A DNA stretch of 64,000 nucleotides, from positions 2,540 through 66,539 of IMG/VR virus record IMGVR_UViG_3300028454_000171, one strand, 5' to 3'. This document shows positions 5-61,529 of the stretch, piece after piece (position 1 is the stretch's first letter; each line of letters opens with the position of its first letter). The notes below the pieces were generated by a model. The model did not search any database. It saw only the letters and a program-made list of their open reading frames with translations, and was not told the origin of the DNA. The stretch comes from a virus (Duplodnaviria; Caudoviricetes). Both the position numbers and the translations under genes were made by a program.

Positions 5-304
5 TTGTGGCATGACGAAAACGGCTGGCAAGGCGGAGATATGTACTATCAGGTTGACCGGACTACCGGCAAGAAAACAAGGGTAGCTGATGCAGTTGCT
101 CTTGACCTGTTAGCGCAAGGCAAAGCCGAGTTGGTAAAAGACGATGACTCGAAAGCGAAAATCCGATTGGTGCTTTCCCGTGACCCTGCCAACAAAGCGT
201 TTTGGGTTGACCGTAAGGGCAATGAAAGAGAGATGGATATTGAAAGCGCAGTCGAAATGCTAAAAAAGGGCAAGGCGCGCGTTCAACATATCACGCTGGA
301 ATGA
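5..304 (+). CDS. Hypothetical protein with two internal similar segments (VDRxxG...A..LL..GKA); start may lie outside the window
   Basis: ORF track; repeated motif YQVDRTTGKK / FWVDRKGNE. Confidence 0.55.
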   Translation: MWHDENGWQGGDMYYQVDRTTGKKTRVADAVALDLLAQGKAELVKDDDSKAKIRLVLSRDPANKAFWVDRKGNEREMDIESAVEMLKKGKARVQHITLE

Positions 305-326: not shown

Positions 327-402
327 CCGTCGATAGCTTAGTGTTAAAGCACCCGACTCTTTATCGGGAGGACGCAGCGTTCGATTCCTGCTCGGCGGAC
401 CA
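327..402 (+). tRNA. tRNA-Lys(CTT)-like, atypical or possibly degenerate
   Basis: Acceptor stem CCGTCGA/TCGGCGG plus A-CCA; D stem GCTT/AAGC; anticodon stem CCCGA/TCGGG with loop CT-CTT-TA; GTTCGATT T-loop. Deviations: U37, D-loop lacks GG, bulged C in T-stem. Confidence 0.8.
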
Positions 403-7503: not shown

Positions 7504-9039
7504 ATGAAACTGACCAAGAAAGAACTGGCTGAGATTATTGCAAAAATCTACAACAACCTCAGCGAAAAGCGCAAGTCCCGCAAAGAAGCGGGTGAGGATG
7601 TAGCTGATGGTTTCACCGTCGAAGAAATCGTTGACGAGCTTGCAGCCGTCGTGGGCAGCGGTGAGGAAGGCGAATCCAAAAGCGGCGAATCTGATGAGGG
7701 CGATGCCGATAACGGCAACGCAGATGAAGGTACTGACAACGCCGATGAGGGCAAGTCAAAAGAAGGCCAGACGGAGATTCCGGCAGACTTCTTTGCCACC
7801 GTAGTGAAGGCACTGGATGCACTTCAGAACGGAGACAAGAAAGGTGAGGCTCCGGCTCCTGAAACCAAGAGTGCAAAGCCCCAGCAGACGGGTCGCAAGT
7901 ATGCCAACATCTTCCTGACTGGTACTGCTGAGCAGGACAAGCCTGATGGCTTCAAAGCTCGCATCGCTTCAATGTCCGCACCTGAACGCAAGAAGACAGT
8001 CTATGGTATGTTTGGACGTGCCGTGAAGTGCATCCACGCTTCCAAGGGCGACTTCGAGAGGGCCGCGTACAACGCAGAGCAGAAGTTCAATGACAGCGAG
8101 ATGGCGAAGGAGTTCAAGGCTCTGTCTGCGACGGTTCCCGGCGATGGCGGCTATCTCGTGCCGGAGGTTTATGCCAACGAAATCATTGAGCTGCTTTATC
8201 CCGCCACCGTCATTTACAGCCTTGGCGCTCGTCGGCTCGGTATGTCCAACGGCAACCTCAACATTCCCAAGATTAAAACTGGATCCCGTGCGTTGTTTAC
8301 CGGCGAGAATCGTGCGATTCCTAAGTCTGCACCTAAGTTCGGCAATCTCCGCCTATCCGCAAAGAAGCTGACTGCTCTCATTCCGATGAGCAATGACCTG
8401 CTTCGTTCCACGAATTTTGACAACGATGTCATCGTTGGTCAGGACATCACGAAACAGATGGCTCTCGGTGTTGATTATGGTGCTCTGCTTGGTTCCGGCG
8501 GTGAGTTCCAGCCCCTTGGCATTATGAAGAACAAGAATGTCCAGAACATCGACGTGACTGCGATTGATGCCGCATACGCAAGCAGCGCAGGTGTGCTGAC
8601 TGCCGCTTTCCCGAATTACCTTGTAGCTTCTGTGCTGAAGAACAACGTCTATGCTGACGGTCTGGGCTTCGTGTTCAACACCAGCGTAGAGCAGTTCCTG
8701 AAGGCTATGCGTGATGATGTAGGTGGCTTCATCTTCGCCAAGGAGATGAACGAGAACCACACGCTGGTCGGCTATCCGTACCAGACCACGAATCTGTTGG
8801 AAACCAGCAGTGGCAAGACCAGCATCATCTTCGGCAACTGGAATGACCTCATCATCGGCGAGCAGGGCGCTCTGGAAATCGAAACCAGCCGTGAGGGTTC
8901 CTGGACGGATGAGTCTGGCGCTCTCGTGTCTGCATTCGAGAATGACCAGACGCTGATTCGTGCTATCGACAATGTGGACATCGGCCTCCGTCATGAGGAG
9001 AGTTTCGCCGTTGCCACCAAGGTAGCTGTGCCGGTGTGA
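7504..9039 (+). CDS. Major capsid protein (HK97 fold) with long acidic N-terminal scaffold/delta region
   Basis: GDGGYLVPE motif, position after protease. Confidence 0.92.
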   Translation: MKLTKKELAEIIAKIYNNLSEKRKSRKEAGEDVADGFTVEEIVDELAAVVGSGEEGESKSGESDEGDADNGNADEGTDNADEGKSKEGQTEIPADFFATVVKALDALQNGDKKGEAPAPETKSAKPQQTGRKYANIFLTGTAEQDKPDGFKARIASMSAPERKKTVYGMFGRAVKCIHASKGDFERAAYNAEQKFNDSEMAKEFKALSATVPGDGGYLVPEVYANEIIELLYPATVIYSLGARRLGMSNGNLNIPKIKTGSRALFTGENRAIPKSAPKFGNLRLSAKKLTALIPMSNDLLRSTNFDNDVIVGQDITKQMALGVDYGALLGSGGEFQPLGIMKNKNVQNIDVTAIDAAYASSAGVLTAAFPNYLVASVLKNNVYADGLGFVFNTSVEQFLKAMRDDVGGFIFAKEMNENHTLVGYPYQTTNLLETSSGKTSIIFGNWNDLIIGEQGALEIETSREGSWTDESGALVSAFENDQTLIRAIDNVDIGLRHEESFAVATKVAVPV

Positions 9040-23402: not shown

Positions 23403-24653
23403 ATGTCGAATTTTGAAGACGGCAGCTACGGCAGCGCGAAAGGCATTGCTCTAATAGCAAAGGTGCTCGCCGGACGCTGCAAAATGAGGTACACACGGGT
23501 GGCGGCGGGCAAGGGATATATCCCCGAAGGGGAAACGCCAAAGACCATGCCAGAACCCGCAGAGTATGTTATGGACGCAAAAATCGCGTCCATATCCAAC
23601 CCCGTGGACGGTGAATGCCAAGTCACTATCCAAATCAATAGTGCGGACGTGGAGACTGGTTTTTACTGCACGGGACTTTTACTTTATGCAGAAGACCCGG
23701 ATGAAGGAGAAATCCCGTACACCTATCTGGTGTTGGAAAACGAGCCGGAGTGGGTTAGGCCAAAATCGTCCATCGTTGGTAAGCTGGCGACTTTTGACCT
23801 TATCGCAGCGGTAGGGGATGTTGATACGGTAGTAGCCGCCATAGATCCCGAAGCCATTGCCACTGTGGAAACGGTCAATCACCTGATTACCGACCACAAC
23901 AGCGACCCAAATGCCCACGGCGGCATTGCGGGCGAAAGCTGTGTTCTTGTCAGTGAAATCGTAATTCCCACGGATGGGTGGAAGGCTCGAACTGATGAAA
24001 CAGTGGACAGCGAATATGCCATGCAGCTTGACATTGAGGTTGATGGTGCGGATGAAACCATGTTCCCGCATCTTGCTCTCACGCTGCCCTCCCTATCCAT
24101 TGCGGGCGATGCAGTGCTTTGCCCGACTATTAAGTCTTGTGACGGGTATGTGCGGCTTTGGGTAAAGAGAACGCCTGCGGCAGAAATCACGGGTGTGCTT
24201 GCTCTACTCTCCGCTCCGCACAACGGTGGCGCAGGAGCGCATATTTTCCGTGTTCCTGCCCAGAAATGGGTGGAACTGGAAGAAGATGAATCTGATTACA
24301 GCTTGCAAGCGGACATTGTAGTGCCTCGCTCTACAGTGAAGGCATCACCGATGGTCGCTTTCAATATTGCTTCGCTCCCTGCTGCACAGGAAGCCGAGAT
24401 TTGCCCTACCATTCAGGCATTTGACGGTTTCGTGAGGCTTTGGGCGAAGAACCGTCCGTCAGAGGATATTAAGGGTGCAATCACTTTGCTGTTTGACATG
24501 GGTGACAATCCTGCGCATCTTCCGACGGCGACCGATTCCGTCCTTGGCGGCGTGAAAATCAAGGAAGGCTCCGGCTTGCGGATTGACGAGGAGGGCAACC
24601 TCTCCATCAATGCGGCTACGCCGGAGGAAGTCAAGGAACTTTACGACCGCTGA
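23403..24653 (+). CDS. Proximal tail fibre/collar protein with two internal repeated domains
   Basis: KGIALIAKVLAG...YTRVAAGKG N-terminus; HNSDPNAH; repeated CPTI...DG(Y/F)VRLW. Confidence 0.7.
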   Translation: MSNFEDGSYGSAKGIALIAKVLAGRCKMRYTRVAAGKGYIPEGETPKTMPEPAEYVMDAKIASISNPVDGECQVTIQINSADVETGFYCTGLLLYAEDPDEGEIPYTYLVLENEPEWVRPKSSIVGKLATFDLIAAVGDVDTVVAAIDPEAIATVETVNHLITDHNSDPNAHGGIAGESCVLVSEIVIPTDGWKARTDETVDSEYAMQLDIEVDGADETMFPHLALTLPSLSIAGDAVLCPTIKSCDGYVRLWVKRTPAAEITGVLALLSAPHNGGAGAHIFRVPAQKWVELEEDESDYSLQADIVVPRSTVKASPMVAFNIASLPAAQEAEICPTIQAFDGFVRLWAKNRPSEDIKGAITLLFDMGDNPAHLPTATDSVLGGVKIKEGSGLRIDEEGNLSINAATPEEVKELYDR

Positions 24654-24994: not shown

Positions 24995-25912
24995 ATGGCT
25001 GATGAGAAAATCCGTCCGATTAACCTTGAGAACCTTGGGACTTTGGTAGACGAAATCAAGTCCCGCTACGCAACAAAGACCGCCCTTGAGGGTGCGACCT
25101 ACCGCATCAAGGCTTTGGAAGATGTGGGCGCACAGGCCAACGTCCTTGAGGGCGTGAAGGTCAATGGCACGGCACTTGCCATCGCCGAGAAGATGGTTGA
25201 CATTCTGATTGCCACCGGCACGGCCAACGGCACCATCAAGGTCAATGGCACTGATGTTTCCGTCGCGGGTCTTGCGGCCCTTGCTTACAAGGCGGAAATC
25301 AGCGTAGATGACCTGTCCGCCGCATTCAAGGCAGCTTTCGACGCGAAAGCTGAGCAGACCTCCATCGACACCCTCGTCGGGAATGTGGAGGGCGACAACG
25401 CGAAGTCCGTCCGCACGATTTCCGCTGAGGAGGTTGCCAAGGTTGTCGCGGGTGCTGACCAGAGCTTCGACACCTTGAAGGAAATCGCCGACTGGATTAT
25501 GAACGACACCACCGGCGCTGCGAAGATGGCGAACGACATTTCCGACCTCAAGACCAAGCTCACGCTCGGTACGCATGAGGTTGGCGGCGAGCAGGTTGAG
25601 TATGCCAATGTCAAGCAGTACGTCGAGGCTGTCACGGCGAGCTTCATCTCCCTGACCGCCCTTTCTGCTGAGACGACCGGCTCCGGCAACGCCATCACCA
25701 GCGCCAGCTATGACAGCGCGACCGGCAAGACCACCTTCACGAAGGGTGCGACCTTCACCGAGGCCGTGGTTCCCGCCGCTGCTGGGAACATTGCGGGTCT
25801 GGATGCCACCGGCCAGCTTCAGGACACCGGCAGCAAAGTCACCGACTTTGTGCGTCATGACGAGATTCAGGCCGTCACCGCCGCCGAGGTCAGGGCGCTG
25901 TTCAACGAGTAA
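24995..25912 (+). CDS. Hypothetical tail-associated protein
   Basis: RBS AGGAGG; strongly biased codon usage. Confidence 0.65.
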   Translation: MADEKIRPINLENLGTLVDEIKSRYATKTALEGATYRIKALEDVGAQANVLEGVKVNGTALAIAEKMVDILIATGTANGTIKVNGTDVSVAGLAALAYKAEISVDDLSAAFKAAFDAKAEQTSIDTLVGNVEGDNAKSVRTISAEEVAKVVAGADQSFDTLKEIADWIMNDTTGAAKMANDISDLKTKLTLGTHEVGGEQVEYANVKQYVEAVTASFISLTALSAETTGSGNAITSASYDSATGKTTFTKGATFTEAVVPAAAGNIAGLDATGQLQDTGSKVTDFVRHDEIQAVTAAEVRALFNE

Positions 25913-25988
25913 TCGTTGGCGGCAGTTTTATGGGAATGTCCCCGCCGAAGGTTCGGCGGGGATGTTCTTTTGACCAAAGGAGGCAGTC

Positions 25989-26483
25989 ATGGCAAACGAA
26001 CAGCAAACATCAATAAAAGCGTTTGAGGCCGGTGGACTTGCCGCCATCGTAGAATACATCAAACAAGCACAAAGCACAGGAGACGACGTTGGCAGGAACC
26101 TTGCGACGTTGGCCACCATGGTCAACGAGGTGCTTACGGGAATCGGCGAAGCTATCAGCACATTGGATTCGACAAAGGCGTATATCGCGGTCAGCAAGGA
26201 TTTTACGCTGGCGGCAAGTGCATGGGTCGAGGACACGGCTGGCTCCGAGGTTTATCCGTGGAAATATGAGCTGGCACTGACCGGTGTGACGGCTGATGTA
26301 CGGGCTGATGTAGTCTTTGACCATGCCAGCGCATACGCAGCCGGAAACTGCGGCGTAAGTTCTGTTTCGAGCACAGCAGAGAACAAGGTCATCCTGCGCA
26401 GCAGCGCAAAGCCAACGGTGAACCTGACCGGAACACTTTATCTCACTCGCGGCAAGGCGAGCGCATCAAACGAGGAGGAATGA
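25989..26483 (+). CDS. Hypothetical tail-associated protein
   Basis: RBS AAGGAGG; operon context. Confidence 0.6.
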   Translation: MANEQQTSIKAFEAGGLAAIVEYIKQAQSTGDDVGRNLATLATMVNEVLTGIGEAISTLDSTKAYIAVSKDFTLAASAWVEDTAGSEVYPWKYELALTGVTADVRADVVFDHASAYAAGNCGVSSVSSTAENKVILRSSAKPTVNLTGTLYLTRGKASASNEEE

Positions 26484-26486
26484 CAA

Positions 26487-28187
26487 ATGGTTGGCAGCGT
26501 AAACACGCCCGGTGTCGGCAAAGCCGAACTGGATAATGTAAAGCAGACGGCGGAAGGCGCGGCAAGCGCAGCGGCAACCGCTCAGTCCACCGCAACAGCG
26601 GCGGCAAATGCGGCGCAGTCTGCGGCAAGCGCAGCGGCGGCTGCTCAGGCGGCAGCAGACGCGGCGCAGCAGACGGCGGAGGAAGCCAAGGAAGAGGCTG
26701 AACACGGCGGTGGCGGGGGCGGTATCGAGCTTGCCGATGTAACAAACGCATCGGCAGTATCCGGAGACAGTAAAGTGTCTCTGAAATGGACAGACCCGAA
26801 TGACATCACTTACAGCGGTGCGACGCTGGCAAGGTGGGCAGGCACGAAGCTCGTGAGGAAGACAGGCTCCGCCCCCACCAGTGCCACGGACGGCACGGTG
26901 ATCGTGGACAGCAAGACGAGGAATGCCTATTCCAGCACCGCTTACGTGGACAGCGGGCTGACGAACAATACGAAGTATTACTACAGGTTCTTCCCCTACA
27001 GCACGGCTGGAATGTACACCACGGGGACGAGCCTGAATGCCACGCCCACGCCGAAGCCCAAGGCCACCATGAGCGTCAGCCCGTCCTCCGTGATGGTGGT
27101 CGAGGGGCAGACGGCGACGGTCACGGTGACATCGAACAGCTCCGGCACGGTCCGCGCCGTGTCCAGCAGCACGTCGAAGGCCACGGTGAGCGTCAGCGGG
27201 AAGACCGTGACCGTCACCGGCGTCGCGGTCGGTTCCGCCACCATAACCATCTCCCAGGACGGGGATTCGACCTATGCGGCGCCGGACAGCAAGACGGTGT
27301 CCGTCACGGTTCCCGCCATCTCGTCCACGCTCAACGACAACACCTGGGCGCAGATTTCCCAAGTGGCCAAGGCCGGAAACGGCGACCTTTATTGGGATAT
27401 CGGGGACTGCAAGGAAATCACTCTGAACGGCAAGGTGGGCAACCAGCTCACCCTCTCCAATAAGAAGCTCTGTGTCTTCATCCTCGACTTCAATCACAAA
27501 ATGAACGGGACGGCGGAGAACAACATCATCTTTGGCGGTTTCAAGACGGCGCTGACCAACGGAACGGATGTCGCCCTCGTGGATGACCAGTACGACCAGT
27601 ACAAGACAGATGGCACAATCATGTTCAACATGAACCACTGGGGCAACCACAACTACGGCGGCTGGAAGGGCTCGGATTTCCGCTACGATATCCTCGGTGC
27701 GACCAGCACTCAGCCGAGTGACTACGGCAAGGATCACACGACTTCCTGTGTAGGTTACGACGCTACAGCCACGACACTGACCAGCCCGAAGGCGAACACG
27801 CTGTTAGCGGCTCTGCCTTCCGATTTACGGAGCAACATACGGCTTTGGACGAGGTATGTGGATGCGGTGGGCAATTCATCCAACGTGGATGCGAACATCA
27901 AGGCTACGGTGGACGCCATCACGCTTCTCGCCGAGCCGGAGATTTTCGCGTCGAGAACCTACGCAAATCAGTATGAGTACAATCACAACACTCGGATGGC
28001 GTACTACGCCAACGGCAACGGCACCATCAAGAAGAAGCATTCGGATGGTTCCACTGCTGTGCTTTGGTGGGAGTCTTCACCTCTTTACTACTCCGCGAGC
28101 TACTTCTGTCTTGTCTACTCCAACGGCAACGCGGACGACTACGGCGCTTCCTATTCGCTTGCGCTCGCGCCGGCTTTCAAAATGTAG
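26487..28187 (+). CDS. DGR target protein: Ala-rich coiled coil, FN3-like, Ig-like (Big_2-like) and C-terminal CLec-type (DUF6273-like) variable domain; probable receptor-binding protein
   Basis: C-terminal 130 nt is the VR matching the TR; SLKWTDP...YYYRFFPY; WWESSP...LAPAFKM. Confidence 0.9.
   Translation: MVGSVNTPGVGKAELDNVKQTAEGAASAAATAQSTATAAANAAQSAASAAAAAQAAADAAQQTAEEAKEEAEHGGGGGGIELADVTNASAVSGDSKVSLKWTDPNDITYSGATLARWAGTKLVRKTGSAPTSATDGTVIVDSKTRNAYSSTAYVDSGLTNNTKYYYRFFPYSTAGMYTTGTSLNATPTPKPKATMSVSPSSVMVVEGQTATVTVTSNSSGTVRAVSSSTSKATVSVSGKTVTVTGVAVGSATITISQDGDSTYAAPDSKTVSVTVPAISSTLNDNTWAQISQVAKAGNGDLYWDIGDCKEITLNGKVGNQLTLSNKKLCVFILDFNHKMNGTAENNIIFGGFKTALTNGTDVALVDDQYDQYKTDGTIMFNMNHWGNHNYGGWKGSDFRYDILGATSTQPSDYGKDHTTSCVGYDATATTLTSPKANTLLAALPSDLRSNIRLWTRYVDAVGNSSNVDANIKATVDAITLLAEPEIFASRTYANQYEYNHNTRMAYYANGNGTIKKKHSDGSTAVLWWESSPLYYSASYFCLVYSNGNADDYGASYSLALAPAFKM
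28052..28181 (+). repeat. DGR variable repeat (VR)
   Basis: Ungapped alignment to 28,782-28,911 (offset 730) with 23 mismatches, all opposite TR adenines. Confidence 0.98.
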
Positions 28188-28222
28188 CGAGCGAAGCGAG
28201 CGGTCAATTATCCGGCTACCAT

Positions 28223-28242
28223 CTGCCCCCGGCAGGGGGCAG
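28223..28242 (+). promoter_or_regulatory. DGR homing hairpin/cruciform downstream of VR
   Basis: 8-bp stem CTGCCCCC/GGGGGCAG with GGCA (GRNA) tetraloop, matching the BPP-1-type target-recognition hairpin. Confidence 0.88.
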
Positions 28243-28268
28243 GTCAGCCGCAGAATAAGGAGCTAACT

Positions 28269-28754
28269 ATGTCAGTATTGAAAGCACACAGAGGTCAAAG
28301 CAAGGCCGAATTCGTCAACACGGCGAACGCCATCTACACGGAAACGCTGTGGTTTTTGTCACGGCTTTCATCACGGTATTCCCGGCTGCTGGTGAAGGAC
28401 ACTATCCACGAAGCCCATGAGATTGTGGCGAACGCGGAAGCGGCAAACAGCATGATGCCTGTAGACCAGCTCCGCTATGAAGAACGGACACGGTATCTCC
28501 TGCGGGCGCGGGCCGCTGTCGGGGCGCTGGATATCCAGATGGCTCACATCTATGAGCTGCTGATGCTCAATCCCGAAGGAGCCTTCTCCAAGCAGAACGG
28601 TGGCAGCATCCCAAGTGCCGAGGCCGTCGAGAAACTCGACAAGATGGCGGAGAGTCTTGGCTGCAAGCTGGACGAGGAAACCAAGCTCCTGACCGGTGTG
28701 ATGAAATACGACAAGCAGTTCCTCGCGAAGAAGCTCAAGGGTGCGTCTCTGTAA
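28269..28754 (+). CDS. avd: Accessory variability determinant (Avd-like four-helix bundle)
   Basis: Located between VR and TR; MSVLK..R..S..EF N-terminus, helical, 161 aa. Confidence 0.85.
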   Translation: MSVLKAHRGQSKAEFVNTANAIYTETLWFLSRLSSRYSRLLVKDTIHEAHEIVANAEAANSMMPVDQLRYEERTRYLLRARAAVGALDIQMAHIYELLMLNPEGAFSKQNGGSIPSAEAVEKLDKMAESLGCKLDEETKLLTGVMKYDKQFLAKKLKGASL

Positions 28755-28781
28755 ACCCTGTCGTTGTAGCAGACGGCTGTT

Positions 28782-28911
28782 CACTGCTGTGAATTGGTGG
28801 GAGTCTTCACCTAATTACAACAACGCGAACAACTTCTGTAATGTCAACACCAACGGCAACGCGAACAACAACAACGCTAACAATTCGCATGCGCTCGCGC
28901 CGGATTTCAAA
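28782..28911 (+). ncRNA. DGR template repeat (TR), followed by the spacer toward the RT
   Basis: 16 AAY codons in the target reading frame; identical to VR except at adenines. Confidence 0.97.
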
Positions 28912-28935
28912 GAGTTGGGTCAAATACAGTAGCCA

Positions 28936-30339
28936 TTGAGCGAAGAAAAGACCCTTTTGAAAGGAGAGACGTTTCCCGTGGCGAAAGCCCGAAACAGCCC
29001 TTCCGATGCCACTGCACGAACGCCACCCCATGACGGGCGTGTGCATGGCGAGGGACATGCCTCACCTCGTTGCATGTGTAGTGAGCAAAGCCGGTTAGAC
29101 GGCACCCGACAAGACACCGGTACGGAAGGCGAATATGTAAAACTCAGTCGTCGGGCAGGGCGGCGGCAACGCCGTGCTGCCCTTCGATTGGAAAAATGTC
29201 AGAAACGTAGCGACGCCCTCGGCGGCATGGAGAATGTCTTCGCCTACAGTAAACTATACAAAGCAGGCAAGAAGTGCTGCAACGGTGTTCGCTGGAAGCA
29301 GAGTGTCCAGCGGTTCGAGCTGAGGCTCTTCAGCGGAACTGCCGTCCGCAGACGCGCTTTGATAAACGGCAGCTTCCGGTTCTCCAAATATGTCCATTTC
29401 ACGCTCTGCGAGCGCGGCAAGATTCGTCCCATCGACGCTCCAAGGATTCAGGATAGGCAGGTGGAAAAGGTCTACACCCAGCTCGTCCTTCTGCCGTTGT
29501 ATCTTCCGAGCATGATATACAACAACGGGGCGAGCCTACCGGGAAAAGGCTTCCATTTCAGCCAGAAGATGCTGACGCAGGAGCTGGTAAGGCACTTCCG
29601 ACAATATGGACGCGATGGCGGTATCGTCCTCGCGGACGGAAAGAAGTTCTTCCCAAGCGCTGATCATCAGCACATCTACGAGCGGCACAGACGGCTCATC
29701 CTCGACGAAGGTCTGAGGGAGTTCGGTGATTCCGTTCTCCGAACGATTCCCGGAAACATCGGAATGCCCCTTGGGGTAGAGCCGAGCCAAGCGGAGATGA
29801 TTGCTTATCCTTCGGAGATGGACAACTACCTGAAGGCCCAATGCCGATTGCAGGGCGGTCACTACATGGATGATTTTCACAACATCGTTCCGCCGGACAG
29901 GGACAGCCGCGAGGTGCTTTCCATCCTTCGCACACAAGCGACGAGGAGCGGCTTCACGCTTAACCCGGACAAGACGAGGTTCGTGCCGTTCCGGAAACCG
30001 TTCCGCTACTGCAAAACGAAGTTCATCTTGACCGAAAGCGGCAAAGTAGTGAAGCGGGCGAACAGCAAGGCCGTGTCGAGGGACAGGAAGAAGATTAAGG
30101 CACTCCACCATAAGGTGCTGGCGGGGAAGATGACATGGGAAGATGTGTGGACAAGCATGAACGGGATGATTGCCTATCTCAAGTGCTACGATGAGCACAA
30201 AAACATCCTGTGGCTGCGGCAGCTCTTCTATCAGCTGTTCGGCTTCTCCTGCGAGCACATTGAGAATTTCAGACGGAGGGACAAATGCGATATATCACAA
30301 TTAAACCGTTCGAACGTAAGGGAATCTGCGGCCCAGTAA
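28936..30339 (+). CDS. DGR reverse transcriptase (true start uncertain, probably near 29,074-29,228)
   Basis: RPIDAPRIQDR, GMPLGVEPSQ and HYMDD motifs; no maturase or endonuclease domain; adjacent to TR. Confidence 0.95.
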   Translation: MSEEKTLLKGETFPVAKARNSPSDATARTPPHDGRVHGEGHASPRCMCSEQSRLDGTRQDTGTEGEYVKLSRRAGRRQRRAALRLEKCQKRSDALGGMENVFAYSKLYKAGKKCCNGVRWKQSVQRFELRLFSGTAVRRRALINGSFRFSKYVHFTLCERGKIRPIDAPRIQDRQVEKVYTQLVLLPLYLPSMIYNNGASLPGKGFHFSQKMLTQELVRHFRQYGRDGGIVLADGKKFFPSADHQHIYERHRRLILDEGLREFGDSVLRTIPGNIGMPLGVEPSQAEMIAYPSEMDNYLKAQCRLQGGHYMDDFHNIVPPDRDSREVLSILRTQATRSGFTLNPDKTRFVPFRKPFRYCKTKFILTESGKVVKRANSKAVSRDRKKIKALHHKVLAGKMTWEDVWTSMNGMIAYLKCYDEHKNILWLRQLFYQLFGFSCEHIENFRRRDKCDISQLNRSNVRESAAQ

Positions 30340-30698
30340 ATATTCCTTATGGTAGCGTTTTAGAGAAGCGGGATGATGGACAGCTCTACTATGATGGAAA
30401 GCCCATCTGCGTGTCTTGGAGCGCGGCCTCCCACACCCATTTCGCTTATGACGGCGACGGTAAGGGGCAGGAGCGTGGAAGGCTCTCCCACGCTATCATC
30501 GAGGCGCTGGAACCGCAGGACGGCGAGACTCGCGCAGACCACAACAAACGCTGGGAACCAATCTGGAAAGATCCGCTCGCCCAGCGTTATCGCAAGCCGG
30601 AACACCTGGACTACTGGCTTTGGCATGACAATTTTTTCAAGGCCCCGATTGAAGACCTTGAGCACATTGCCACGCTTGCAGGCGTGGGGAAAGGATGA
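30285..30698 (+). CDS. Hypothetical protein downstream of the DGR RT
   Basis: ORF overlapping the RT end; RBS-like GGAGGG. Confidence 0.65.
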   Translation: MRYITIKPFERKGICGPVNIPYGSVLEKRDDGQLYYDGKPICVSWSAASHTHFAYDGDGKGQERGRLSHAIIEALEPQDGETRADHNKRWEPIWKDPLAQRYRKPEHLDYWLWHDNFFKAPIEDLEHIATLAGVGKG

Positions 30699-30997
30699 GA
30701 AAAATGTTTAGAATCATCAACACAAACGGTGGCACGGAAATTGGCAGTACCGAGAATCCGCGTTTCATCAAGAAAAGTTCTGCCGGCTGCTATATACAGA
30801 CGGATGAGGAGAACGCACAGGGCGTGGCCTACAAGGGAGTAGCATACAATCTCCACGGCAGGGACGGCATCGGCGCGGAGGACACCATCATGCTCATCGA
30901 GTTCGATGCCGGAAGCCGCGCTGACGAGACTGCTGCCGCCATCGCAGAGCACAGCAGCGCCATCGACGACATCATCATTTCGATTTTGGAGGGTTGA
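30695..30997 (+). CDS. Hypothetical protein (tail fibre assembly region)
   Basis: Coupled ORF upstream of the XkdX-like gene. Confidence 0.65.
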   Translation: MRKMFRIINTNGGTEIGSTENPRFIKKSSAGCYIQTDEENAQGVAYKGVAYNLHGRDGIGAEDTIMLIEFDAGSRADETAAAIAEHSSAIDDIIISILEG

Positions 30998-32349: not shown

Positions 32350-32424
32350 GAACCAAAAGAAGCCTGAGTTGGTTTTTATGATGTGATAAGAACCAAAACG
32401 GTAGAAAGGGAACAGGTGAGAGAA

Positions 32425-33831
32425 ATGAAAGTGTTCATCAATCCCGGCCATGCCTTGAATGGCAACCCAGACCCCGGAGCTTGTGGTTATGGCTTGCGAG
32501 AGTCGGACGTAGCTGCAAATGTCGGCGCGATGGTCACAGAAAAGTTGAATGCGGCGGGAGTAGAAACATATCTCCTGCAAACGGACAACCTTTACGGTGT
32601 TCCTGATGTAGCAAACGAGTGGGATGCAGATTTGTTCGTGAGCATTCATTGTAATGCGTTCAATGGTGTCGCAAAGGGGACAGAGACTTGCGTGTATCGA
32701 CTTGGAACACAGGGGTCTGCTTTAGGAGAAGCGGTACAGGAAAAGCTCATCGCACAGATTGGTACGGTTGACCGTGGACTCAAGGAGCGTCCTGGTCTTT
32801 GCGTTTTGAAGCGAACGGATATGCCAGCCATCCTTGTGGAGACTGCGTTCATCGACGAGTTTACAGATAATGCAGCCCTTCGTGATCGGCAGGAAGCGTT
32901 TGCCAAGGCCATAGCGGAAGGTATCATGCGGTATGCTGGTATCAATGCAGTCAGCAAGCAAGAGGACACGAGGGAGATTGCCCCGAATGGTCAGCCTTAT
33001 GATGACAATGATATCCAGTACCTGCTGAACAATGGCTATACCCGTGCTGATGCCTTGTCTTTTCTTGATACCACGGACAAATATTCAGCGAGCAATATTC
33101 CGTCTGCGGCTGCTTATGCGGACAGCCGTGTCGGGTCGCAGGGCTACGGCAACAACGGCTGTACTGCCTGGGTGCGTGATTTCCTGCTCCATGCGAATCA
33201 TTTTATGGGCAAGCTCATGGATGATGGTTCGCAAGGAAATCTGATGTGGGTTCCGAACCTGATGGATTATGCCAAGGCTAACGGTCTGTGGAAAGAGCCG
33301 GAGGAAGGCGGTGTGATGGGTGACATCTGCCTTCTCGAAACAAATTACTGTCGCTCTGATGGCCCAGACCATGTGGTGATTGCCACGGGCGATGGTGATT
33401 ATTGGGGCAACAGTTCGAGCCGTAACCGTATCGTGAAGTCTTCCATCGCCGGAGATTACGGTGCAGAAAACGTGTGGGGCTATGTCGCCACGGGAACCAA
33501 GTCTTACGGGGCTGGACACATGGTACAGGGGCAGAGTACCAGGACAGCAGCAGAAATTGTGGGCGATGCTGGGAGCACGTCTTGCGTAACCCTGGCTCCC
33601 AACGGAGCTGCCTATGAGGAAAACGACATCAAGTACCTCGTGGGGCATGGCTACACTGTGGATGATGCAATCGAGCTATTGTCCAAAGAACCGAAGTATA
33701 CGCAGAAGGGACGCATTGCTCCGAATGGAAAGCACTACGAACAGAACGATATAGACTACTTGCTGAAACAGGGTTACACAGAGGACGCAGCCATCGCATT
33801 CCTGGCTACGGCAGACAAGTATCTGAGGTGA
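32425..33831 (+). CDS. Endolysin: Amidase_3 domain, second Cys/His (CHAP/NlpC-like) domain and three ~37-aa repeats
   Basis: VFINPGH, LFVSIHCN, MPAILVETAFID; GCTAWV...DHVVIATG. Confidence 0.88.
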   Translation: MKVFINPGHALNGNPDPGACGYGLRESDVAANVGAMVTEKLNAAGVETYLLQTDNLYGVPDVANEWDADLFVSIHCNAFNGVAKGTETCVYRLGTQGSALGEAVQEKLIAQIGTVDRGLKERPGLCVLKRTDMPAILVETAFIDEFTDNAALRDRQEAFAKAIAEGIMRYAGINAVSKQEDTREIAPNGQPYDDNDIQYLLNNGYTRADALSFLDTTDKYSASNIPSAAAYADSRVGSQGYGNNGCTAWVRDFLLHANHFMGKLMDDGSQGNLMWVPNLMDYAKANGLWKEPEEGGVMGDICLLETNYCRSDGPDHVVIATGDGDYWGNSSSRNRIVKSSIAGDYGAENVWGYVATGTKSYGAGHMVQGQSTRTAAEIVGDAGSTSCVTLAPNGAAYEENDIKYLVGHGYTVDDAIELLSKEPKYTQKGRIAPNGKHYEQNDIDYLLKQGYTEDAAIAFLATADKYLR

Positions 33832-35504: not shown

Positions 35505-36905
35505 TCAGAAAGCCCATTCGATTGTAACATTGTCGTTGTCTAGAATAATGCGGGACACGAGGCTTTCCAGAATGCGGCGTTTTTGTGCTTTATCTGCGAA
35601 GTCCCAGACTTGGGCGGCATCAGCGATAAGTTCCTGTGCCAAGTCGAATGAAATGTGGTTAGTTTTTTTCTCGTCCGGGACGATGGCGGCCTCCAAGGCA
35701 GTCTTTTCGGTGTAGAGCTTGTTAATGCTTTCGCCGAGTACATTTGGTGGTATGTCGTCAAGTTGGTATAACTCCATCAGCTTGGCAATTTGTTTGTCGA
35801 TGGCTTTGATTCGTTTTTCGATGTCGGCATTCTTGCCGGATAAAACCGGCTTCGGCTGGTGGGATGCAGCAATTTCAGCGGCAAGTTCAGGTGATTGAAG
35901 AACCTCACGAACTTTGCGGTCAATGATGGCTTCCAAGTTATCTTTTCGCCAATGCTTGTTTTTGCAATTTGGGTCTTTAATCATCGTTGGCATCTGCTTG
36001 GTGCGGGAGTAACAGGAATAGTAACGACGGTTGCTACTGGCCTTTGTGTAGTATCGACCTCCGCAGTGTCCGCAGAAAAGCAGTCCTGTGAGAAGATTCT
36101 TAGTTTGGAAGTTTGAAGAATGCTGATGCCGTTTGGCTTGAAGTTCTCTTGCTGCTTGATATTGTTCTTTGGTTATGATTGCTTCATGTGCGTGTTCCAC
36201 GGTGATGCCTCCGAAGTCCATGCGGCCTGTATATACGGCATTGCAGAGAATGCTGCGAACAGTTGACCATGAACTGTAATTGCCATAGCGGGTGGTATAT
36301 CCTGCTTCAGCCATGAGTTTTCTTATGCGTTGGATTGAAAGCCCTGCAAGATACCAGTCATATATTTTCCTGACCTGCTCGGCTTCATAAAGATTTATGG
36401 TGAGTTTGCCGTCTGTGCGATCATAGCCGATAGGGACATTACCGCCGCCACGATATAGGCCAGATTTTGCCCGTGCAATGCGGCCCATCCGTGTGCGCTC
36501 CTTGATTTGTTCACGTTCGAGCTGGGCGAAGACAGCAAGCAGACCTATCATGGCCTTGCCGAATGGTGTGGCGGTGTCGAAGCTCTCCTGCATGGAGACG
36601 AAATCGACATCGTGGGGAAGGAATGCTTCTTCGATGAGATATAGGGTATCACGCTGGGAGCGGGAGAGCCTGTCGAGTTTATAGACGAGCACCACATCAA
36701 ATTTGTCTGTCTCGTCCATGAGCTTCTTAATTCCAGGGCGGTCGAGGTTACTGCCGGAATAGCCTCCGTCCACATAGACATCAGCTATCAGCCAGTCATG
36801 TGCCTTGCAGTAAGCAATCAGACGTTCCTTCTGCTCGCCGATGGAGTAGCCCTCCTGAGCTTGTTCCTGTGTCGAGACGCGGATGTAGAGGGCTGCGCGT
36901 TTCAT
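35505..36905 (-). CDS. Large serine recombinase (integrase)
   Basis: ALYIRVST catalytic Ser, YKLDRLSR, recombinase domain, zinc ribbon CGHCG. Confidence 0.96.
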   Translation of the reverse strand: MKRAALYIRVSTQEQAQEGYSIGEQKERLIAYCKAHDWLIADVYVDGGYSGSNLDRPGIKKLMDETDKFDVVLVYKLDRLSRSQRDTLYLIEEAFLPHDVDFVSMQESFDTATPFGKAMIGLLAVFAQLEREQIKERTRMGRIARAKSGLYRGGGNVPIGYDRTDGKLTINLYEAEQVRKIYDWYLAGLSIQRIRKLMAEAGYTTRYGNYSSWSTVRSILCNAVYTGRMDFGGITVEHAHEAIITKEQYQAARELQAKRHQHSSNFQTKNLLTGLLFCGHCGGRYYTKASSNRRYYSCYSRTKQMPTMIKDPNCKNKHWRKDNLEAIIDRKVREVLQSPELAAEIAASHQPKPVLSGKNADIEKRIKAIDKQIAKLMELYQLDDIPPNVLGESINKLYTEKTALEAAIVPDEKKTNHISFDLAQELIADAAQVWDFADKAQKRRILESLVSRIILDNDNVTIEWAF

Positions 36906-38140: not shown

Positions 38141-38188
38141 TAGTTTTTCGGAAATTTTTCCGAAAAGAATTCTGCAAACCTCCTTCTT

Positions 38189-38251
38189 GACCTGCCATCA
38201 TCAGAGCCGGTGGGTCAGTTCCGGCTGACCAGCCTTTCGGCTGGTTTCGGC
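38189..38251 (-). ncRNA. Type II hammerhead ribozyme HH1 (predicted cleavage between 38,227 and 38,226)
   Basis: GCC-GAAAC-stem III-GUC-stem I-CUGAUGA-U-GGC with loop I/3' tail pseudoknot. Confidence 0.92.
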
Positions 38252-38253
38252 TA

Positions 38254-39876: not shown

Positions 39877-39911
39877 TCTTTTACCCACTTACTAGGTGCC
39901 GTTGCGGTAGT

Positions 39912-39974
39912 GACCTGCCATCATCAGAGCCGGTGGGTCAGTTCCGGCTGACCAGCCTTTCGGCTGGTTTCGGC
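39912..39974 (-). ncRNA. Type II hammerhead ribozyme HH2 (predicted cleavage between 39,950 and 39,949)
   Basis: 63-nt identity with HH1; complete catalytic core. Confidence 0.92.
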
Positions 39975-39975
39975 C

Positions 39976-61154: not shown

Positions 61155-61421
61155 ATGACTAGCCCGATGATTACTGAGGTTCGCAAGTGGAATTCCATGA
61201 GCGTCAGAAACGTATGCGTAAACAATGACCTCTACACCTGCGGATGCAACGAGGACTACATCCGGCTGCTGGATGAAGTAAATCTCATGGAGCCGACGAA
61301 GGAAAACATCTACCGCGTGGCAACCGACATCGTAAAGCATAGCGATGAGCAGACCGTATCAAACGTGATGTTCCTGCTGGCCAATCAGGCTGTGACAGTT
61401 TCCTTCGCGATAGCAGAATGA
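61155..61421 (+). CDS. Small hypothetical protein upstream of HH3
   Basis: Stop codon abuts the ribozyme. Confidence 0.7.
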   Translation: MTSPMITEVRKWNSMSVRNVCVNNDLYTCGCNEDYIRLLDEVNLMEPTKENIYRVATDIVKHSDEQTVSNVMFLLANQAVTVSFAIAE

Positions 61422-61484
61422 GCCGAAACCAGCCGAAAGGCTGGTCAGCCGGAACTGACCTACCGGCTCTGACGATGGCAGGTC
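61422..61484 (+). ncRNA. Type II hammerhead ribozyme HH3 (predicted cleavage after 61,446)
   Basis: GAAAC, stem III CAGCC/GGCTG, GTC, stem I AGCCGG/CCGGCT, CTGACGA, pseudoknot GACCT/AGGTC. Confidence 0.93.
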
Positions 61485-61529
61485 GTAAGACTTCTAGTAA
61501 AATTTCTTGAAAATATTTCGGAAAAACTA

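Follow-up and report, generated by a model that had tools for sequence, protein, structure and literature searches.

Does the cassette at positions 26,487 to 30,339 of a 64,000-nucleotide stretch of virus DNA (which we call the window) hold a complete diversity-generating retroelement (DGR)? And if so, what does it diversify? The window makes up most of the IMG/VR virus record IMGVR_UViG_3300028454_000171, which is 66.5 kb long and about 75% complete. The paradigm for DGRs is BPP-1, whose lectin-fold target protein determines tropism. We conclude with high confidence that this locus is a complete BPP-1-type DGR, at the junction of the tail-fibre and lysis genes of a temperate myovirus. Its anatomy can be observed directly and has the order that an earlier note, made from the DNA letters alone, had described: a target gene that ends in a variable repeat (VR), a hairpin, an avd-like accessory gene, a template repeat (TR), and a gene for a reverse transcriptase (RT) (Table 1). 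That note's reading of the locus as a BPP-1-type DGR is supported by our results. All of its structural claims held, with the adjustments that are described below.

We begin with the repeat pair. Between positions 26000 and 31000, a repeat finder reports a single long direct repeat (130 nt, 82% identity), and its two copies are the VR and the TR. Compared base by base, they align without gaps and have 23 mismatches, and the TR has an adenine at all 23 (12 A>T, 6 A>C, and 5 A>G). This means that 23 of the TR's 42 adenines are changed. As adenines make up 32% of the TR positions, the probability that 23 of 23 mismatches would hit them by chance is about 5e-12. All 23 mismatches are also at codon position 1 or 2 of the target open reading frame (ORF). 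In the mutable part of the VR, no stop codon can be reached (none of the 16 AAY codons can mutate to a stop), and the coding capacity is about 10^21.9 peptide variants. The coordinates, the ungapped alignment, and the counts had all been given before, and our recount matched them; the translations of both repeats were reproduced as well. Two statements of the earlier note needed adjusting. It called the VR heavily mutated, and the mismatch count is correct, but 23 is in the ordinary range, as relatives show 7-30 mismatches. It also took all 23 changes to be mutagenic. One of them (28174) is better read as a fixed boundary difference, as explained below, which leaves 22 changes among the 38 adenines of the mutable part.

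Related loci show the same pattern. We compared the element to 40 related RT loci from IMG/VR, whose RTs are 43-60% identical to ours. In 37 of the 40, there is a repeat pair in the same layout, and the mismatches fall almost only on TR adenines. (In L013, L017, and L020, our script did not find the pair, perhaps because these loci are truncated on the VR side.) Several of the related loci have the same TR with different VRs. The closest relative is the metagenome contig L047, which is 96.8% identical over 5.4 kb (25501-30893). The TR differs from L047's at just 1 of 130 positions (C>T at 28888). The VR differs at 27 positions. At 26 of these positions the TR has an adenine; the one left over (28158) carries the C>T substitution that is also seen in L047's TR. 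So, a non-adenine marker has moved from TR to VR since these phages diverged, and TR-to-VR transfer happened recently in this lineage (the lineage, that is, rather than this genome itself). We read the co-transfer of the marker as the signature of retrohoming. The nucleotide difference from L047 is 25% in the mutable part of the VR, 1.6% in the avd-like gene, 0.7% in the RT gene, and 0% in the upstream ORF. VR variation in related genomes had been named beforehand as a check, and it is present.

These results also bear on another explanation. The repeats might stem from an ordinary duplication whose copies were driven apart by point mutation or recombination, and the neighbouring RT might be unrelated to them and come from a group II intron, a retron, or a defence system. 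NCBIfam does give weak, sub-threshold matches of the RT to a group II intron RT/maturase (32.9 bits, where the cut-off is 300) and to Drt2. But the RT has the DGR motif and its best match is bRT, the RT of BPP-1, and an Rfam scan gave the RT-2 RNA and no group II intron or retron RNA family. Also, an ordinary duplication would not place every mismatch at the adenines of one copy, at the odds given above, or repeat this A-restricted pattern in dozens of relatives, or copy L047's one non-A change in the TR into its VR. The A-only mismatches, the pattern in the relatives, and the L047 marker have already effectively refuted this explanation, and we give it almost no chance of being correct.

The 3' end of the VR looks like that of a DGR. 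A GC-rich run of 13 nt (28161-28173) is common to the VR and the TR. The first base after this run is C in the VR (28174) and A in the TR (28904), and this holds in 22 of 22 elements (the window and 21 relatives), so it appears to mark the boundary between the two forms of the initiation of mutagenic homing site (IMH and IMH*). Past TTTC(AAA), the two sequences diverge. Past 28174, the adenines are never changed, and these include an AAA codon from which mutation could produce a stop. The alanine in the encoded LAPAFK is invariant among homologs. Overall, the mismatch at 28174 is better read as a fixed IMH/IMH* difference, or as a strongly selected alanine, than as random mutagenesis. The GC-rich run with its diverging tail fits the anatomy of an IMH.

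Farther downstream, 41 nt past the end of the VR, is the 8-bp hairpin with a GGCA loop that had been described before (CTGCCCCC-GGCA-GGGGGCAG). We found a perfect GC-rich stem of 6-9 bp with a 4-nt GNNA loop (GGAA, GAAA, or GACA) in 19 of 21 related loci, at 31-44 nt past the end of the VR. (Our script reported no hairpin in L010 or L030.) The stem sequences differ between loci, as in CCGCCCAC/GTGGGCGG and CCCCCGGC/GCCGGGGG, while the position is conserved. We considered whether the hairpin could be an intrinsic terminator, and rejected this because no T-run follows the stem. In BPP-1, Guo and colleagues reportedly described in 2011 a target-recognition hairpin downstream of the VR. By analogy, the hairpin in the window is a probable target-recognition hairpin or cruciform.

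We then examined the RT. Its sole match among the sequences in PDB is bRT from the cryo-EM structure of the BPP-1 ribonucleoprotein (8ub7; E = 5e-6). In the phmmer alignment, LGVEPSQ aligns with IGSLTSQ of bRT, GHYMDDF aligns with ARYMDDI, and the arginine in GKIRPID aligns with R74. The RTs of DGRs have the signature [I/V/L]GxxxSQ instead of QGxxxSP, and R74 and I181 promote adenine mutagenesis (PMC7826257). The YMDD that had been noticed before is thus present along with the DGR signature. Judging from this motif, the YxDD box, and the equivalent of R74, the RT belongs to the DGR clade.

Between the VR and the TR, where an avd gene had been proposed, there is a gene for a protein of 161 amino acids. 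The protein has no sequence match in Pfam, NCBIfam, or PDB (phmmer), and none of its more than 1000 homologs has a Pfam domain. To see its fold, we used an AlphaFold 2 model based on an alignment of 45 sequences. The model is a four-helix bundle, with a predicted local distance difference test (pLDDT) of 85.6. The top 7 structural alignments (from VIA-align) are all to proteins of the Avd/PF05635 type, with Z of 13.0-15.7 and a root-mean-square deviation (rmsd) of 2.0-2.3 Å, and they cover 106-114 residues of targets with 108-115 residues. Among these are 2gsc (Z = 15.7, rmsd 2.1 Å, 114 of 115 residues), 2rld (Z = 13.9), Avd in the BPP-1 ribonucleoprotein (Z = 13.4 for 8ub8_C and 13.3 for 8ub7_C), and free BPP-1 Avd (4dwl; Z = 13.0). 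The placement of the gene provides independent support: in at least 52 of 69 loci from bacterial genomes, a homolog lies between a VR with adenine mismatches and a nearby TR. So the proposed avd has the position and, in the model, the fold of an Avd, but no sequence match to any Avd family.

The spacer that separates the TR from the RT gene is structured as well. A match to the RT-2 RNA of Rfam begins 4 nt past the end of the TR. Among the 23 related loci that we scanned, 22 have RT-2 immediately 3' of the TR, including those of the Faecalibacterium phages Pioen and Taranis (23 of 24 if the window is included). The paper that defined the RT motifs tied only RT-10 to a DGR (that of BPP-1) and speculated that other RT motifs could belong to DGRs as well (Weinberg et al. 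2017, PMC5737381).

Part of RT-2 pairs with sequence on the other side of the TR. We spotted this duplex by eye, from conserved motifs, and then tested it. (RNAduplex on long flanks gave long structures that could not be interpreted.) The 5' strand, GGGTGYRYYYCTG, overlaps the final codons of the avd-like gene. The 3' strand is within RT-2, in the AAAGGAGAG...CCC stretch (AAAGGAGRRRYRC-TTCCC) that Rfam draws as unpaired. In the 11-bp duplex, 28739-28741 and 28743-28750 pair with 28965-28972 and 28975-28977, which encloses the TR and the first hairpin of RT-2. The two strands covary. In an alignment of 39 distinct loci, the pairing is formed in 429 of 429 cells, and 7 of the 11 pairs have compensatory double changes (at the outermost pair, for instance, 29 loci have GC, 7 have AU, and 3 have CG). 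The covariation is 0.486, as compared to 0.219±0.014 for shuffled data, and 0 of 500 shuffles reach the actual value. As a control, we slid the partner strand by 1-3 columns, which gave pairing of 43-83%.

A preprint on the BPP-1 ribonucleoprotein describes duplexes formed by the two flanks of the TR, upstream and downstream, which it names "cPRT Stop," and reports them in 207 of 278 DGRs with a recognisable Avd (10.1101/2023.10.23.563531). By analogy, the duplex that we identified is likely the equivalent of cPRT Stop. In the literature that we searched, we did not find a statement that RT-2 pairs across the TR with the 3' end of avd, although this is possibly covered elsewhere. We also sought the priming site (the equivalent of A56 of Sp in BPP-1) and pairing between the 3' end of the TR and the spacer. 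We identified neither, because the 3' end of the TR (GGATTTC) is invariant and gives no covariation.

We made some other observations about RNAs and small ORFs near the TR. In many relatives (L005, L006, L057, L063, L116, and others), the TR and RT-2 are separated by an additional short hairpin with a GAAA or AAAA cap (such as CCAGAAATGG or CCCCGAAAGGGG). It resembles stem-loops of other DGRs that reportedly bind Avd and lie immediately downstream of the TR. This hairpin is absent from the window, where the TR runs almost directly into RT-2. At the 3' tail of RT-2 (in the region of 29131-29230) there is a minimal ATG-TAA ORF that is out of frame. In one group of related phages (L005, L009, L011, L012, L015, L018, L021, L024, and L026), a drum RNA (Rfam RF02958, about 90 bits) lies past the DGR and lysis genes, about 5 kb downstream of the RT genes; it is absent from the window.

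What does the element diversify? The VR encodes the last 44 residues of the target protein (about 523-565), which form four C-terminal beta-strands in the AlphaFold 2 model of the C-terminal module (pLDDT 97.3). The earlier note had placed the VR in a C-type lectin fold and suggested structure prediction as a check, and the prediction gave DUF6273 and then C-type-lectin-like folds. The best structural match of the module is to residues 32-282 of 9qa6 (Z = 15.1, rmsd 3.0 Å, 189 residues). This is the IgA peptidase of Thomasclavelia ramosa, and the matched part is its N-terminal DUF6273 domain. (The domain has been annotated as DUF6273, and its function is not known; PMC12402451, PMC12415215.) The link to 9qa6 is structural only: a profile search of the module against PDB sequences gave no meaningful match.

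After 9qa6, the matches in our search against structure representatives are almost all C-type-lectin-like folds. They include BACOVA_04982, a Bacteroides fimbrial tip protein (Z = 6.4), Lcl from Legionella (Z = 5.9), TvpA (Z = 5.8), PvdO (Z = 5.0), dozens of animal C-type-lectin-like domains (Z of about 4), and TaqVP (Z = 3.7). TvpA and TaqVP are variable proteins of DGRs. At the sequence level, the module has over 2000 homologs, most of which are annotated with PF19789 (DUF6273) and whose N-terminal parts are very different. Among the close relatives of the target, P0122-P0124 (88-91% identical) carry precomputed PF19789, and P0122-P0125 differ from the target mainly at AAY-templated residues. 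This agrees with published accounts of DUF6273 targets of DGRs (those of Roos, Pioen, Lelie, nd4, and nd12), which put the VR at the C-terminal end of the domain (PMC11792537, PMC10743442). For nd4/nd12, it has been described as a surface beta-hairpin of the domain that is hypermutated (PMC10743442). As for the rest of the protein, FN3-like and Ig-like domains had been proposed. The Ig-like domain is confirmed, as Big_2, while the matches that suggest an FN3-like domain are weak.

Some of our results count against this picture of the element. The target itself scores 22.4 bits against the DUF6273 model (E = 1.2e-4, residues 462-564), which is below the cut-off of 23.5. The C-type-lectin matches other than the DUF6273 structure have Z of only about 4-6.4 (3.7 for TaqVP). 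For the accessory protein, none of the 45 family members that we scanned matched PF05635, with E values up to 10 allowed, and an hhalign comparison of the family with a weak PF05635 protein gave a probability of 0.3. (A search for PF05635 in five Oscillospiraceae genomes gave two sub-threshold matches only, which is too few for a profile.) Unrelated helical bundles also score Z of about 12-13 against the model, with rmsd of 3 Å or more, so the background is high. The margin for the Avd fold is therefore modest; the ranking and the full-length fits are specific. Because there is no sequence match in the tests with Pfam, NCBIfam, and hhalign, we do not class this protein as a member of PF05635. 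Instead, according to the model, it is an Avd-fold protein that is Avd-like in its context.

The start of the RT gene is the other difficulty. In the relatives, the RT starts at a conserved methionine, some 31 codons before the homology core, and a basic segment comes next (M-S/T-...-RR.KAKRE). In the window, this methionine is replaced by CTC (leucine), with the basic segment still in frame. The candidate starts are ATG 29074 (which is inside RT-2), TTG 29188, and ATG 29227. None of the three has a good Shine-Dalgarno (SD) sequence, and two of them would cut off the conserved basic segment. This DGR could have been silenced recently: the lineage diversified its VR lately, but here the RT is made poorly or not at all and the VR is frozen. 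Within the clade, some DGRs are without read-level variation while others have it (PMC11792537). Against this, the RT gene of L047 has a near-identical 5' region, yet the two VRs have diverged by retrohoming. The RT frame is also intact (467 codons, with all catalytic motifs) and it is open from 28936, through the RT-2 region, so initiation at ATG 29074 is possible. The RT gene differs from L047's at 8 nt, and 7 of these changes are synonymous, which suggests purifying selection. And the TR, the Avd-like protein, the hairpin, and the RNA elements are all intact. We think that silencing is unlikely, and we continue with the reading of the locus as a complete BPP-1-type DGR.

If so, then the changes in the VR presumably alter which surface ligand the virion binds. 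By analogy, we infer that the target may serve in the switching of tropism or adhesion. Alternatively, the DGR is active but the target is an accessory adhesin, such as a Hoc-like or tentaclin-like decoration or a side fibre, rather than the primary receptor-binding protein. Its ligands would then be variable glycans, mucus, or something else other than a receptor, and diversification would tune adherence, not host range. An architecture of a coiled coil, FN3-like and Big_2 Ig domains, and a lectin-like tip would suit such a role, and a separate, conventional tail-fibre gene lies upstream. Homologs place the C-terminal module on varied N-terminal anchors, including the head-fibre domain PF11133. 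Furthermore, the only solved DUF6273 domain is in a secreted IgA peptidase and has no known function, and the same alternatives have been raised for other DGR targets that contain DUF6273 or Ig domains (PMC10743442). On the other hand, the target adjoins the fibre genes in a baseplate/tail-fibre block, like the DGR target of Taranis, and the lectin-fold target of BPP-1 is a tropism determinant. An accessory adhesin is a possibility worth keeping in mind, although we doubt it.

The rest of the target gene seems to have its own history. Outside of the VR (26487-28050), it differs from L047's by 7.3%, mostly by transitions, with 70 synonymous and 32 non-synonymous codons and a 3-nt indel at 26711. 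Because the upstream ORF is identical and the avd-like and RT genes differ by just 0.7-1.6%, the body of the target gene looks like a recombined, more divergent allele, independent of mutagenesis by the DGR.

With BPP-1 as a guide, the element would work as follows. A transcript that takes in the avd-like gene's 3' end as well as the TR and RT-2 would fold, and the conserved long-range duplex would clamp the TR. The RT, together with the Avd-fold protein, would copy the TR into cDNA and misincorporate opposite adenines. The homing step would be directed by the GC-rich run and its IMH-like tail, along with the GC hairpin farther downstream. As a result, up to 16 asparagine-templated codons and a few others would be randomised. 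The randomised residues would sit in the C-terminal beta-strands of a DUF6273/C-type-lectin-like domain, which is carried by a fibre-like protein with a coiled coil, FN3, and Ig regions. In this scheme, priming, the complex of Avd with RT, homing, and the biological role are all modelled on BPP-1.

Table 1. The DGR, the domains of its target, and other features of the window (SD, Shine-Dalgarno sequence).
Feature	Position	Strand	Details
Tail-fibre gene	23403-24653		PHROG match; upstream of the DGR target
DGR target gene	26487-28187	+	566 aa; SD GAGGAGG 9 nt upstream
Target: coiled coil	residues 14-72		Ala-zipper-like; Ala-rich N-terminus, then Gly linker
Target: FN3-like	residues about 80-192		Weak: Pur_ac_phosph_N, E = 0.014; language-model fn3 cluster neighbours, 0.91-0.93
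Target: Ig-like	residues 194-275		Big_2, E = 3e-6; C-terminal Ig domain of lambda gpV, E = 3.7e-8
Target: C-terminal module	residues 280-566		DUF6273/C-type-lectin-like; carries the VR
VR	28052-28181	+	Ungapped match to TR; mutable part 28052-28160
GC hairpin	28223-28242	+	8-bp stem; probable recognition hairpin
Accessory (avd-like) gene	28269-28754	+	161 aa; isoelectric point 8.6; strong SD; phrog_30516 (uncharacterised)
TR-bracketing duplex	28739-28750 (5' strand), 28965-28977 (3' strand)	+	Long-range, 11 bp
TR	28782-28911	+	42 A; 16 AAY (Asn) codons in the VR frame
RT-2 RNA (Rfam RF03077)	28915-29150	+	116.6 bits, gathering score 40; model positions 1-222 of 222
RT gene	29074-30339	+	RVT_1, E = 1e-11; phrog_1423, E = 4e-63; homology core from ATG 29227
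ORF	30285-30698	+	137 aa; phrog_29409 (unknown function); own SD GGAGGG
Endolysin gene	32383-33831		PHROG match
Large serine integrase gene	35505-36905		PHROG match
tRNA gene	327-399	+	Left end of the window
Type II hammerhead ribozyme (Rfam RF02276)	38186-38252	-	44.3 bits, gathering score 37
Type II hammerhead ribozyme (Rfam RF02276)	39909-39975	-	39.7 bits, gathering score 37
Type II hammerhead ribozyme (Rfam RF02276)	61421-61487	+	38.8 bits, gathering score 37

We called the virus a temperate myovirus from PHROG matches over the record. Besides the PHROG matches in Table 1, these include the large terminase, portal, major head protein, tail sheath, tape measure, and the baseplate hub and wedge. 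The DGR cassette is between the tail-fibre genes and the lysis genes (holin and endolysin). The earlier note had put the target after the fibre genes, and this was borne out. The whole 66.5-kb record has just one VR, with no second VR and no remote target. A scan of 26300-30800 found no sigma-70-like promoter.

The ORF that follows the RT gene overlaps its last 55 nt. Pioen also has an ORF that overlaps the 3' end of its RT gene, but the two proteins are unrelated. We considered the ORF in the window as an accessory gene of the DGR, and rejected it as such because it lacks similarity to the Pioen ORF in the same position.

The host is likely a bacterium from the rumen Selenomonadaceae, because the nearest homologs of the Avd-like protein (69-81% identical) are in metagenome-assembled genomes (MAGs) from this group. 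More distant homologs (46-57% identical) are in Oscillospiraceae and other Clostridia. Two loci from this clade of Bacillota phages, with the Avd-like protein and a DGR, are in MAGs that are labelled as Prevotella sp. and Bacteroidaceae (L064 and L100). These labels are probably binning artefacts rather than real hosts. As to other RNA genes, three type II hammerhead ribozymes lie within this one prophage. In a related locus (L004), a tmRNA gene (8007-8372, on the minus strand) lies about 2 kb downstream of the RT gene, and it may mark an integration site.

What does this locus add? Thousands of DGRs are known in gut phages. DGRs of this type, with a DUF6273 target, have already been published for Faecalibacterium phages, so this is not a new kind of system (PMC11792537, PMC10743442). 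The value of the locus is that it is a clean and complete DGR with a natural experiment attached: a sibling contig with adenine-only turnover of the VR and co-transfer of a TR marker. It also gives three side results on this clade's DGRs that could be of use for annotation and for work on the mechanism. First, the "hypothetical protein" of about 150-160 amino acids between the VR and the TR is, by its predicted fold, an Avd, and it has no Pfam model. Second, the RT-2 RNA of Rfam is the TR-adjacent DGR RNA of this clade. Third, the covarying duplex between the 3' end of avd and RT-2 parallels an element that limits cDNA synthesis in BPP-1. Finally, because the closest relatives are in MAGs of rumen Selenomonadaceae, this type of DGR extends to phages of Negativicutes.

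A broader reading is that these loci form a distinct and very widespread sub-class of DGR ribonucleoproteins in the Bacillota phages of the gut and rumen, with an orphan Avd of 150-160 amino acids, an RT-2 spacer, and a clamp around the TR. We lean slightly towards this reading. In such a sub-class, the AAAGGAGAG...CCC of RT-2 may be the 3' half of the clamp, paired with the last codons of avd, and may set the limits of reverse transcription. If this is correct, then RT-2 has a functional assignment, and surveys that required a recognisable Avd have systematically missed the RNA elements of this clade.

Finally, we compared the element to known systems. A nucleotide search with the cassette against 50,697 phage records gave no match, so its relatives there are recognisable at the protein level only. 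By protein search, the nearest annotated phages are the Faecalibacterium phages Pioen, Roos, and FP_Taranis (Cornuault et al. 2018; PMC11792537), along with a lemur-gut virus. The DGRs of Taranis and Pioen have the same order as in the window: tail fibre, DUF6273 target with a C-terminal VR, a protein of about 152 amino acids, TR, RT-2, RT, and holin/endolysin. Across Taranis, Roos, and Pioen, the RTs are about 50% identical to the window's, and the C-terminal modules of the targets are 37-38% identical (37-40% when the lemur-gut virus is counted in). The protein of about 152 amino acids from Pioen (orf26, which is unannotated) is 48% identical to our Avd-like protein. The target in Taranis is already annotated as "DUF6273 domain-containing protein, DGR target." Reads from Roos and Pioen have been reported to show VR variation (PMC11792537). 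The differences are that the window's target has another N-terminal anchor, that the start codon of its RT gene is not conserved, and that its nearest relatives are in rumen Selenomonadaceae MAGs, and not in Oscillospiraceae. Also, in Taranis the target and the avd-like gene are separated by an Arc-like gene, while the window has no small ORF there.

We also compared the target to two kinds of proteins outside of these phages. Tentaclins have an N-terminal lectin-like domain, then Ig domains, and a C-terminal Ig domain as an anchor (PMC10743442). In the window's target this order is reversed, with the coiled coil and the FN3/Ig domains N-terminal and the lectin-like tip C-terminal, so we rejected the idea that it is a tentaclin. 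The DUF6273 domain of the IgA peptidase is the best fold match to the VR-bearing module, but it is not diversified by a DGR.

Compared to BPP-1 (mtd-avd-TR-brt), the window has the same order of target with VR, accessory gene, TR, structured spacer RNA, and RT. The likeness extends to the adenine-specific differences between TR and VR; the GC-rich 3' end of the VR, with a diverging tail that resembles IMH/IMH*; the hairpin past the VR, with a GC stem and a loop of 4 nt; the homology of the RT to bRT, including the [I/V/L]GxxxSQ motif and an R74 equivalent; the predicted Avd fold of the accessory protein; and a duplex that joins the upstream and downstream flanks of the TR. There are also differences. 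In place of Mtd, the window has a target whose DUF6273 module sits on a coiled-coil/FN3/Ig stalk, and this target has no sequence match to Mtd. The Avd-like protein has 161 amino acids; relative to the Avd of BPP-1, it shows an insertion between helices 3 and 4, an extended C-terminal helix, and no similarity in sequence. And the spacer RNA of BPP-1 was reported as RT-10, whereas the window has RT-2 (PMC5737381). As first described, RT-2 lies upstream of an RT gene (PMC5737381). It does so in the window as well, and it lies directly 3' of the TR.

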